Positions 50,561 to 53,500 of a stretch of DNA of 64,000 nt are shown in pieces. Each line of letters opens with the position of its first letter. Position 1 is the stretch's first letter. This DNA is from Escherichia coli. GTDB lineage: Bacteria; Pseudomonadota; Gammaproteobacteria; Enterobacterales; Enterobacteriaceae. A program made the position numbers and the translations under genes. Location of the stretch: the NCBI RefSeq assembly GCF_965641715.1, contig NZ_OZ282453.1. The stretch is one strand, 5' to 3'. The notes beneath the pieces were generated by a model. The model saw only the letters and a program-made list of their open reading frames with translations. It had not been told where the DNA came from and made no database searches.

Positions 50561-51472
50561 ATGGATGACTGTGGTGCGGTTTTGCATAATATTGAAACCA
50601 AATGGCTTTATGATTTTCTGACCCTGGAAAAATGCCGCAATTTTTCCCAGGCGGCAGTCAGTCGTAACGTCTCGCAACCGGCATTCAGCCGCCGCATCCG
50701 CGCGCTGGAACAGGCGATTGGCGTTGAATTGTTTAACCGCCAGGTGACGCCGCTGCAACTCTCAGAACAAGGGAAAATCTTCCATTCGCAGATCCGCCAT
50801 CTGTTGCAACAGTTAGAAAGTAACCTTGCAGAGCTGCGTGGCGGCAGCGATTACGCGCAACGTAAAATCAAGATAGCCGCTGCACACTCTCTTTCCCTCG
50901 GTCTGTTACCGTCCATTATCAGCCAGATGCCGCCGCTCTTTACCTGGGCGATTGAAGCTATTGATGTCGATGAAGCAGTCGATAAACTGCGTGAAGGGCA
51001 AAGTGACTGTATTTTTTCCTTTCACGACGAAGATTTGCTGGAAGCGCCGTTTGACCACATTCGCTTATTTGAATCTCAATTATTCCCTGTCTGCGCCAGT
51101 GACGAACACGGAGAAGCACTTTTTAACCTCGCGCAGCCACACTTTCCGTTACTGAATTACAGCCGCAACTCCTACATGGGGCGATTGATTAATCGCACCC
51201 TGACGCGCCACAGCGAGTTAAGTTTCAGCACCTTTTTTGTCTCTTCGATGAGCGAGCTATTAAAGCAGGTTGCCCTCGACGGCTGTGGGATTGCCTGGCT
51301 GCCGGAGTATGCCATCCAACAAGAAATTCGCAGCGGGCAGCTCGTTGTGCTGAATCGGGACGAACTGGTGATCCCGATTCAGGCCTACGCATACCGGATG
51401 AATACCCGCATGAATCCAGTTGCCGAACGCTTCTGGCGTGAACTGCGCGAGCTGGAGATTGTGCTTAGCTGA
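50561..51472 (+). CDS. hypT: LysR-family regulator (hypochlorite-responsive HypT)
   Basis: 303-aa ORF with N-terminal LysR HTH. Confidence 0.85.
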
Positions 51473-51857
51473 CATTCTCCAGCGTCGCACTGCGCCAACC
51501 GCCATTATCCCAGACCAGATCAAACGTTAGCGGTTCATCGTCGTGGTACAGCATTATCTCAAGGCTGATCGCCAGAGTGTGGCAGTACGCTTCTTTCAAA
51601 TTAACCTGCAACGCCGCAATCCGTGGCTCATGAAATAACAGTGCAGAACGCAGCTGACGGCAATACCAGCTCTGGAGATGTTTGTCGCTCGGGTTATGCA
51701 CTTGCCACTCGGGCATGCCTGAAACAAGTAATGACGGTAATGCCGAATGAGGAGAATTAAAAAGAGTGAGGAGATCGCTGCATACCGATTTACGCAGCAA
51801 TGACGTTTTATTGCCTGAAATTTCAGGTAAAACAGCCTGAAGTGATTGGCGCATCAT
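51465..51857 (-). CDS. iraD: Anti-adaptor protein IraD (RpoS stabiliser)
   Basis: ORF 51465..51866; likely start [21 protein letters not shown] (130 aa); 3' end overlaps the hypT 3' end convergently. Confidence 0.8.
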
Positions 51858-52529
51858 TTTGCGCACTCCTGACGTTTAGCAACATATGCGGCTTGCCCTG
51901 AACACCGGGCACCACTGTATTGATGCTCATTTTCCATAGCCATTCCCTTTTGTTCATTACATCCATGTCAGTCTGAGACAGGCCTGAATCCTGTCAGCAA
52001 AGTATAAAACCTTACTTGCCTATGAATATCTACTGACTTTTCAGGAAAAAAGTCATGATTTGATAAAAATCATCAAACTCAAAAAAAAACCGCTAGTATA
52101 TTCTGAATATTCCGAATAGTTACGTAGATGAAAATTCTTGTCACCGCCGCTACTTAATTTCGGTGGGAAATTATTTATTTCCGCATAATCAGCCATGTAT
52201 TATTTGAAACAATTAGTTTGTAAATAATATAAATTGATAACATATCAAATACATCAAAAATACCATTCACAGGCATTATTAATATAGACATCAATATAGC
52301 AACATCAAATTCCAATTAGTAATAAGATATGCTTTTTAATTGCATGAAAATAATTTCAAATGAGCGTTTTTTGATACTTTAGAGTGTTTCCTACCCTTTA
52401 ATATCACCGTGTAGAGTTGATATCACTACAACAGAAACATGCATGTCATTTTTTTACTTCTCATTTTACTACAGAAAAATTTATCTATTTTTCTAAACAT
52501 CAGTGAAATACTCATAAAAGGTAACTATT

Positions 52530-53360
52530 ATGTCTATGCCATTAAGCAATACCCTTCAGAGCCAAATTATTACAGATAATCACTTCCTTCATCATCCAAA
52601 AGTCGACAGTGAGTTAACACGTAAATATGAACGTGCACGCCTGGATACGGAAAATATCTATCTTCTGCCTCTTGCTCGTGGCAATAACCATAATTACGAT
52701 GGAAAAAGCGTTGTCGAAATTAGAAAACTTGATATTAGTAAAGAGTCCTGGCCATTTAATTATGTGACAGAAGCATGCAGAGAATCCGATGGTATTACAA
52801 CAACAGGACGTATGCTCTATCGAAACTTGAAAATCACCTCAGCTTTAGACGAAATATATGGTGGCATATGTAAAAAGGCGCATGCTGCTACAGAATTAGC
52901 AGAAGGTTTACGGCTAAATTTATTTATGAAGAGCCCTTTCGATCCTGTTGAGGACTATACAGTTCATGAAATAACATTAGGCCCTGGTTGCAATGTTCCA
53001 GGTTACGCCGGAACCACGATAGGATATATTTCAACCCTTCCAGTTTCTCAGGCAAAAAGATGGACCAATGAGCAGCCAAGAATTGATATCTATATTGATC
53101 AGATAATAACTGTCTCAGGGGTAGCAAATTCTTCCGGATTCGCCCTTGCCGCATTACTTAATGCTAATATTGAGATGGGAAATGACCCAATCATTGGTAT
53201 AGAAGCCTATCCTGGTACCGCGGAGATCCATGCAAAAATGGGATATAAAGTTATCCCCGGTGATGAAGATGCGCCACTCAAACGCATGACTCTGCAACCG
53301 TCATCTCTTCCAGAACTGTTTGAATTAAAAAATGGTGAATGGAATTATATTGGCAAATAA
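52530..53360 (+). CDS. yjiC: Uncharacterised protein
   Basis: 276-aa AT-rich ORF in conserved position between iraD and uxuR. Confidence 0.75.
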   Translation: MSMPLSNTLQSQIITDNHFLHHPKVDSELTRKYERARLDTENIYLLPLARGNNHNYDGKSVVEIRKLDISKESWPFNYVTEACRESDGITTTGRMLYRNLKITSALDEIYGGICKKAHAATELAEGLRLNLFMKSPFDPVEDYTVHEITLGPGCNVPGYAGTTIGYISTLPVSQAKRWTNEQPRIDIYIDQIITVSGVANSSGFALAALLNANIEMGNDPIIGIEAYPGTAEIHAKMGYKVIPGDEDAPLKRMTLQPSSLPELFELKNGEWNYIGK

Positions 53361-53460
53361 CCACTGAGAAGAATGAGTACTAACATTCAGGTTATATAGA
53401 TATTTAAACAATACCCTGCAATTTACAAAGTAATACTCATTGCGACTTCTTAATTTAAGA

Positions 53461-53489
53461 AAGCGCAAGGAACGTTTACCCTTGCGCTT
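53461..53489. terminator. Bidirectional hairpin between yjiC and uxuR
   Basis: AAGCGCAAGG-aacgtttac-CCTTGCGCTT. Confidence 0.7.
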
Positions 53490-53500
53490 ATCATAATCAG

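Follow-up and report, generated by a model that had tools for sequence, protein, structure and literature searches.

What fills the long, AT-rich spacer between the divergent genes iraD and yjiC of Escherichia coli: empty DNA, a set of promoters, an overlooked small RNA, or a switch built on a homopolymer? We addressed this question in a 64-kb window (the whole stretch of 64,000 nucleotides that was analyzed), in which the gene order is iadA-hypT(yjiE)-iraD on one side of the spacer and yjiC-uxuR-uxuB on the other. In all probability (we would say roughly 93%), this is the control region, already known, that iraD and yjiC share as divergent genes, comprising two promoters, three small open reading frames (ORFs), and a CsrA-mediated repression of one of these ORFs, idlP, to which iraD is translationally coupled. 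The gap is real but ordinary, and the region has already been published (Merrikh et al. 2009, Park et al. 2017, Sass et al. 2022), including the length of the spacer, both promoters, the three small ORFs, and the inputs from CsrA, DnaA, SspA, HusR, and H-NS. Its value here lies in calibration: a long, AT-rich gap beside a stress regulator, "empty" at first sight, proves to be a densely packed leader that is translated.

The iraD-yjiC spacer matches the K-12 locus

The spacer and its immediate surroundings are laid out as follows, in window coordinates.

51465..51857, minus strand: iraD coding sequence, 130 amino acids (aa), RssB anti-adaptor with a GPW_gp25 domain (Pfam match); ATG at 51857
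51858..52529, both strands: spacer between the divergent genes iraD and yjiC, 672 bp, GC 0.32
52277..52529, plus strand: yjiC upstream region, GC 0.24 to 0.30, the lowest at the locus
52530-53360, plus strand: yjiC coding sequence, DUF2686 (Pfam match)

An earlier note on this DNA, made from the letters alone, had described an AT-rich spacer of about 670 bp upstream of iraD. This description is accurate in its dimensions, the spacer being exactly 672 bp long with a GC content of 0.32 overall and of 0.235 to 0.30 over positions 52100 to 52500, compared with 0.496 for the 64-kb window. The location upstream of iraD is also true, but not solely so: since iraD and yjiC are divergent, the gap is the upstream region common to both genes. 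Within 50 kb of K-12 surrounding the locus, it is exceeded in length only by the gap between nanC and fimB (1,455 bp). A megablast search matched the iraD-yjiC gap in 4,903 of the 5,426 complete E. coli genomes, with 95 to 99% identity, and idlP, ytiD, and often ytiC are annotated under those matches.

Compared with K-12, the gap has the same 672-bp length and is 98.7% identical. All nine substitutions lie upstream of the T9 run described below, with none in the promoter hexamers, and the stretch from this run through iraD codon 2 is 100% identical between the window and K-12. The elements of the K-12 iraD promoter-leader (b4720 to b4722 and b4326), that is, promoters P1 and P2, the four CsrA sites, and the ATGA overlap, are identical here, and so are the DnaA box -81 and the HusR box. 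Among the differences from K-12 are a G-to-T change at 52290, which creates an additional in-frame ATG within the P1 spacer, and the changes E13K, S17G, and Y21N in the YtiD of the window. Given the identity of the elements, K-12-like behavior would be expected in this strain. Published positions are counted from the iraD ATG following Park et al., such that position -n corresponds to window position 51857 + n, a conversion that was checked against the CsrA footprints.

Promoters P1 and P2

52274..52308, minus strand: promoter P1, with -35 TTGATG at 52308-52303, -10 TATATT at 52286-52281, and transcription start site (TSS) at 52274 (-417)
51994..52006, minus strand: promoter P2, with -10 TATACT at 52006-52001 and TSS at 51994 (-137)

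The suggestion in the earlier note that the gap contains multiple promoters was sound, although the answer has been known since 2009: P1 and P2 are both intact in the window. Their TSSs at -417 and -137 were mapped by Merrikh et al. 2009 and were reused by Park et al. 2017 and Sass et al. 2021/2022. The P1 hexamers (TTGATG-16-TATATT) were found independently by our promoter scan and end 7 nt before 52274. The P2 hexamer TATACT likewise ends 7 nt ahead of the TSS at 51994, and it is kept in five other Escherichia lineages. The distance between the two TSSs, 280 nt, agrees with Park et al. 2017. Taken over the region, the consensus scan returned 4 promoter-like sites where 4.3 are expected from composition-matched shuffles and hence no excess of such sites.

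Following the published work, iraD would be transcribed from a distal, sigma70-dependent P1 and a proximal, sigma70/sigmaS-dependent P2. P1 is reported to be raised in late log phase in a ppGpp-dependent manner and by AZT or replication stress, and P2 to be constitutive, active throughout growth, and responsive to ppGpp and AZT. The AZT induction of both promoters is LexA independent. In transcripts from P1, the leader would be 417 nt long and would be translated at ytiC, ytiD, and idlP. RNA sequencing (RNA-seq) with AZT gave induction of 260-fold for ytiC, 33-fold for ytiD, 18-fold for idlP, 14-fold for iraD, and 11-fold for yjiC, and the same source terms ytiC "cotranscribed with iraD."

Three small ORFs in the iraD leader

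51854..51937, minus strand: idlP (ORF27, 27 aa, iraD leader peptide; K-12 b4722), the TGA of which overlaps the iraD ATG (ATGA)
52053..52196, minus strand: ytiD (ORF47, 47 aa; K-12 b4721), ORF intact
52175..52276, minus strand: ytiC (33 aa in K-12, b4720), Pfam PF23685, 93.8 bits

The gap had also been described as lacking any convincing ORF, and this is contradicted by three small ORFs on the iraD strand that are annotated and for which translation has been demonstrated experimentally. In the window, ytiC, ytiD, and idlP are all intact, and they are annotated in NC_000913.3 and in RefSeq genomes. Translation of all three leader ORFs was reported by Park et al. 2017, and the 33-aa YtiC was detected via chromosomal SPA tagging (VanOrsdel et al. 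2018). ORF47 (ytiD) and ORF23 (in the ytiC frame) both fall between P1 and P2. Among the proteins of the locus, Pfam matches were limited to YtiC, YjiC (DUF2686), and IraD, and a search of the NCBIfam models gave no matches for IdlP, YtiD, YtiC, or YjiC. Removal of the start codon of either ytiC or ytiD left iraD expression unchanged (Park et al. 2017); of the three leader ORFs, idlP alone would matter for iraD.

CsrA sites and coupling of idlP and iraD translation

51989..51991, minus strand: CsrA site BS1, GGA (-134), functional in P1 transcripts only
51960..51969, minus strand: CsrA site BS2 (-112..-103), critical for repression; CAnGGAnG conserved
51941..51947, minus strand: CsrA site BS3 (-90..-84), overlapping the idlP Shine-Dalgarno sequence; conserved across Escherichia
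51933..51935, minus strand: CsrA site BS4, GGA (-78), overlapped by the DnaA box -81
51866..51870, minus strand: iraD Shine-Dalgarno sequence AGGAG, holding a fifth GGA (-12) that is not bound by CsrA

Four GGA-containing CsrA sites are present at -134, -107, -89, and -78, and the G residues that are protected from RNase T1 in the published footprints fall on G in the window (51969/51960 in BS2, 51947/51941 in BS3, and 51935/51934 in BS4). The GGA of BS1 (51991-51989) lies 3 nt downstream of -137. Park et al. 2017 found that iraD is translated only via coupling to idlP, the iraD Shine-Dalgarno sequence being sequestered, and that CsrA binding to BS1 to BS4 blocks idlP initiation, with a shortened half-life of the iraD mRNA. 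On this basis, the overlap of the idlP stop with the iraD start, combined with a sequestered Shine-Dalgarno sequence, would make iraD dependent on ribosomes that finish idlP. By blocking idlP initiation, CsrA would abolish the coupling, so that iraD would be repressed and its mRNA destabilized.

Of the components of this arrangement, idlP (with no indels), the ATGA overlap, BS2, and BS3 are kept in five other Escherichia lineages, and the iraD Shine-Dalgarno sequence is kept in the four lineages without yjiC. In the RNAalifold prediction, a conserved hairpin covers the start-codon region, and 2 of 33 pairs covary, the pairs being otherwise invariant and the alignment holding little variation. 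Since covariation is almost nil, the comparison adds no independent support for the structure that sequesters the Shine-Dalgarno sequence. CsrA-repressed leaders that operate via coupling to an upstream ORF (uORF) carry a GGA over the uORF Shine-Dalgarno sequence and a uORF stop over the main start, and both features are found here. The class was defined on iraD/idlP; the locus is its type example and shows no difference from it.

DnaA, HusR, SspA, and H-NS inputs

51930..51938, plus strand: DnaA box TTTTCCATA ("box -81"), overlapping the idlP start codon and CsrA BS4
52090..52105, unstranded: proposed HusR (YnfL) box CCGCTAGTATATTCTG, directly abutting the A9 run

Repression by DnaA-ATP through box -81 has been reported for iraD, and DnaA chromatin immunoprecipitation sequencing (ChIP-seq) gave no signal at iraD (Stringer et al.). 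An input of DnaA-ATP via this box may exist and is disputed. The HusR box falls in a palindromic, conserved block (52099 to 52118); the conserved block ATTATTCGGAATAATCAGAATAT, which overlaps the box, is common to the four diverged Escherichia lineages without yjiC. HusR binding has been reported in vitro only, with no in vivo effect on iraD reported, and the reported effects of SspA on iraD are complex. SspA and HusR may be further inputs to iraD, together with H-NS acting on the AT-rich distal half of the spacer.

The yjiC/iraD spacer is listed as an H-NS-bound, foreign "promoter island" (Panyukov and Ozoline 2013). The H-NS occupancy refers to K-12 and is taken from a table in Panyukov and Ozoline that cites Kahramanoglou and Oshima. 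The locus shares with the "promoter islands" of Panyukov and Ozoline 2013 a low GC content and a presence/absence polymorphism (see below). Unlike most of them, it contains a productive, regulated promoter, P1.

The leader is an unlikely source of a small RNA

52034..52075, minus strand: two A/U-rich inverted repeats between the ytiD end and the P2 -35 region

The earlier note had offered an unannotated small RNA (sRNA) as one possible content of the gap. Such an RNA could be free-standing or a stable, processed piece of the P1 leader, and some features of the region would suit it. No role in the control of iraD is known for the 280 nt that separate P1 from P2. The ytiD end holds a U9 run and two A/U-rich hairpins, the arms of which (CTTTTT/AAAAAG) are kept across Escherichia lineages. 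The graded AZT induction, from 260-fold for ytiC to 14-fold for iraD, could reflect transcripts that are partly terminated or processed inside the leader. However, these ratios hinge on very low basal counts and do not represent abundances, and the 280 nt in question are a translated segment that is conserved in the long haplotype only.

None of our searches lent support to the idea, and neither did the literature. A search of Rfam with positions 51300 to 52800 returned only a eukaryotic snoRNA model, whose 24 bits fall short of the gathering score of 50. No terminator-like site was detected on either strand of the region. Folding of the minus strand from 51990 to 52150 gave a z-score of -1.83, with 12 of 200 shuffled sequences folding as well as the native one. 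Our literature search found no Term-seq or RIL-seq reports for the gap. We therefore consider an sRNA encoded in the gap very unlikely and retain the reading of this segment as translated iraD leader. A function of the U9 run as an intrinsic terminator was considered separately and rejected, as no G+C-rich stem precedes the run.

The A9 run is part of ytiD and does not switch

52081..52089, unstranded: A9 run (T9 in the ytiD sense strand), read as GGT TTT TTT TTG (G-F-F-L), codons 36 to 39

The A9 tract that had been noticed near 52080 is indeed present, at 52081 to 52089, and is the sole A/T run of at least 8 in the 64-kb window. In simulated regions of the local composition, an A/T run of at least 9 arises by chance in 5 to 9% of cases, which makes the tract notable but not significant. 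It follows the P1 TSS by 185 nt and precedes the P2 TSS by 87 bp, outside the promoter spacers.

Could this run be a contingency tract, in which replication slippage toggles ytiD, iraD, or yjiC between isolates, as implied by the earlier description of a possible slippage site? True contingency loci have broad length distributions. We surveyed the tract by exact-match queries with 32-nt flanks, in which any difference lowers the identity to below 99%. Among the 4,645 genomes with identical flanks, A9 was found in 4,580 (98.6%), A8 in 42, and A10 in 23; the locus is carried by 4,897 genomes, those beyond the 4,645 having single nucleotide polymorphisms (SNPs) in the flanks. The length is essentially invariant among isolates, the outcome that the note itself had named as telling against a slippage site, and as a population switch the idea fails.

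The existence of A8 and A10 variants (NZ_CP025851.1 and NZ_CP027352.1 are examples of such assemblies), some of them in near-identical genome pairs from one study, might speak for slippage, as might the lone position of the tract in 64 kb. Moreover, a one-base change does alter the C terminus of YtiD: translation of the altered run yields a 38-aa YtiD for T8 and a 55-aa YtiD for T10, and in one A8 genome ytiD was marked as frameshifted by PGAP. However, the 1.4% of one-base variants are indistinguishable from the homopolymer errors of long-read assemblies; neither the window nor the 50 kb of K-12 contains a second A/T run of at least 8 that could set a baseline for one-base errors. The run is also poorly placed for a switch, in the 3' third of ytiD (codons 36 to 39 of 47) rather than within a P1 or P2 spacer or toward the 5' end of any gene whose phenotype is known, and iraD is unaffected when the ytiD start codon is abolished. 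In E. albertii the run is T7, and other lineages as well as the short E. coli haplotype have interrupted sequence at this position; the A9 run is young and specific to E. coli. The locus shares with homopolymer contingency loci a 9-nt A/T run in a coding sequence and differs from them in its invariant length and in having no phenotype linked to ytiD. Taken together, a contingency function is extremely improbable. The A9 tract is not a phase-variation switch; it is simply the T9 of the ytiD Phe-Phe-Leu codons in AT-rich DNA, fixed at nine.

Possibly, the run acts at the level of the transcript instead, as a transcriptional-slippage or pause site that generates mixed YtiD isoforms or modulates read-through from P1 into idlP-iraD. 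Slippage of E. coli RNA polymerase is reportedly detectable on A or T runs of about 9 residues. The run is kept at exactly 9 in the long haplotype, and loss of one base from the mRNA would end YtiD at once, whereas gain of one base would lengthen the protein to 55 aa. Nevertheless, such slippage is putative, and a low mutation rate together with recent common ancestry explains the fixation at 9 equally well. For YtiD no function is known; the protein shows 3 nonsynonymous and 1 synonymous differences among 4 aligned strains, and is not conserved in E. albertii. We regard this as unlikely, and a plain stretch of phenylalanine and leucine codons remains our preferred account of the run.

Haplotypes of the iraD-yjiC block

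52136..53500, unstranded: AT-rich block of about 1.37 kb (yjiC, P1, ytiC, and the 5' half of ytiD), lacking in the short haplotype

Two aspects of the locus provide minor leads, the haplotype structure described here and the clash of the ytiC start with the P1 TSS (see below). Over positions 52100 to 53500, the GC content is 0.24 to 0.41 compared with 0.50 to 0.56 in the flanks, with sharp borders. This AT-rich block is missing from 491 of the 5,426 complete E. coli genomes (about 9%). It is also missing from four Escherichia lineages, E. whittamii, Escherichia sp. E1V33, and two genomes labeled E. coli, the loci in other species having been found through IraD. In these four lineages, uxuR lies about 410 bp from iraD, without yjiC, and homology to the window ends at the uxuR stop (53500/53501) and resumes at about 52121 to 52135, within ytiD. 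E. albertii carries the long form, 72% identical, with a yjiC homologue and different small ORFs. The distal half of the gap (P1, ytiC, and 5' ytiD) thus belongs with yjiC to a block that is polymorphic in E. coli, as judged from these genome comparisons.

The short haplotypes carry an iraD cassette that is diverged by about 22%. In one such strain, 2012C-4502, the uxuR and hypT flanks are 97.5 to 97.7% identical to the window, and the shared part of the cassette is 77.7% identical to the window and 94% identical to the alleles of cryptic clades. The IraD of this strain is 127 aa long, and a PEP-binding pseudogene fragment is also present. Comparison of the 150-bp spacer of the short haplotype with the long block revealed no homology beyond that of shuffled controls. 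Flanking direct repeats were considered as a trace of insertion or deletion and dismissed as chance: two short pairs lie near the edges, and the local alignment score of 19 is below the highest value among shuffles, 23. As separate observations, two IS1 copies in one genome replace everything from -125 to uxuR, and in another genome an IS1 is located just beyond yjiC.

Conceivably, the spacer has two parts of different origin. About 260 bp on the proximal side (part of ytiD, P2, the CsrA sites, and idlP), common to all Escherichia examined, may represent the ancestral leader, and the distal 400 bp or so (5' ytiD, ytiC, P1, and the yjiC promoter region) may form, with yjiC, an AT-rich, H-NS-bound block of foreign type, with P1, the promoter for stationary phase and replication stress, recruited from "promoter island" DNA. 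We put this forward tentatively and consider it possible, if rather doubtful. If true, about 9% of E. coli strains would naturally lack P1 and should stabilize RpoS with different dynamics. E. coli holds two deeply diverged iraD cassettes, only one of them with P1 and yjiC, which predicts strain-dependent induction of IraD. The segregation of these cassettes is of modest interest for natural variation in RpoS control.

The ytiC start codon and the P1 TSS

The annotated ytiC ATG occupies -419 to -417 (52276-52274) and coincides with the mapped P1 TSS at -417. With the TSS inside the ATG, the 33-aa form cannot be made from a P1 transcript beginning at -417. This leaves three explanations: the A at -419 is the actual TSS, with ytiC read from a leaderless mRNA; another promoter is used; or translation starts at the ATG at -386, giving 22 aa. 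The start choices are indistinguishable in the tagging experiment because the tag is C-terminal, and the ytiC start codon is not addressed in the ribosome-profiling preprint or in the tagging paper. The ATG at -386 is in frame with the junction of the "ORF23" fusion of Park et al., and the length of that ORF23 matches neither the 33-aa nor the 22-aa ORF in the ytiC frame. As a smaller corollary of the two-part reading of the spacer, YtiC would be either made from a leaderless mRNA or misannotated. The 38-aa "hypothetical protein" that PGAP annotates in many genomes is the form of ytiC that starts from the ATG at 52291, where K-12 has AGG.

Two versions of the iraD cassette

The cassette that runs from the uxuR stop codon to the 3' end of hypT is present in E. 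coli as two deeply diverged versions, both of which are segregating. The long version (4,890 genomes) comprises yjiC, P1, ytiC/ytiD, and a 130-aa IraD, whereas the short version (491 genomes) lacks both yjiC and P1 and carries a 127-aa IraD together with a PEP-binding pseudogene fragment. Between the two types, the flanks are ~97.6% identical and the common portion of the cassette ~78%. Compared with the E. whittamii and Escherichia sp. E1V33 alleles, the short cassette shows 94% identity.

Features in the window
51462-53500, cassette region; short-type counterpart at 2555-3787 of L013 (NZ_CP027440.1), with further counterparts in loci L006, L008, L009, and L010
52090-52126, palindromic block TATTCTGAATATTCCGAATA, overlapping the proposed HusR (YnfL) box and adjoining the A9 run

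The palindromic block lies ~100 to 130 bp upstream of the P2 TSS and is kept in every Escherichia lineage examined, including those that lack yjiC and P1. Such conservation suggests that it is an ancestral protein-binding site for P2.

At the 3' junction, iraD and hypT are convergent in the long haplotype, with 3' ends that overlap by 8 bp (51465-51472); the two genes of the short haplotype are kept apart by a pseudogene fragment of 372 nt.

yjiC and ytiC in relation to P1

The yjiC gene (52530-53360; GC about 0.40) encodes a DUF2686 protein, and its promoter is unmapped. AZT induces yjiC 11-fold, independently of LexA and alongside the divergent P1 transcript. This joint induction suggests common control of yjiC and P1 from the 253 bp that separate them.

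The annotated ATG of ytiC (52276-52274; -419 to -417) falls on the published P1 TSS (-417), and the 33-aa YtiC can therefore not be encoded by the -417 transcript unless the mRNA is leaderless. The nearest downstream in-frame ATG, at 52243, would give a 22-aa YtiC, in agreement with the fusion junction of "ORF23" (Park et al. 2017). The 38-aa ytiC called by PGAP starts at an ATG (52291) that lies within the P1 spacer and is missing from K-12.

Insertion sequences and a probable contaminant iraD

IS1 is active at the AT-rich iraD/yjiC locus. In NZ_AP023286.1 (3126-4828), two IS1 copies replace the stretch from iraD position -125 up to uxuR, with loss of P2, P1, and yjiC, while in NZ_CM194009.1 (3048-3671) an IS1A lies directly past a slightly longer yjiC.

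The draft assembly of Bacillus coahuilensis m4-4 contains a 605-bp contig (NZ_ABFU01000118.1) that encodes an IraD with 99% identity to the E. coli protein; this contig is almost certainly E. coli contamination.
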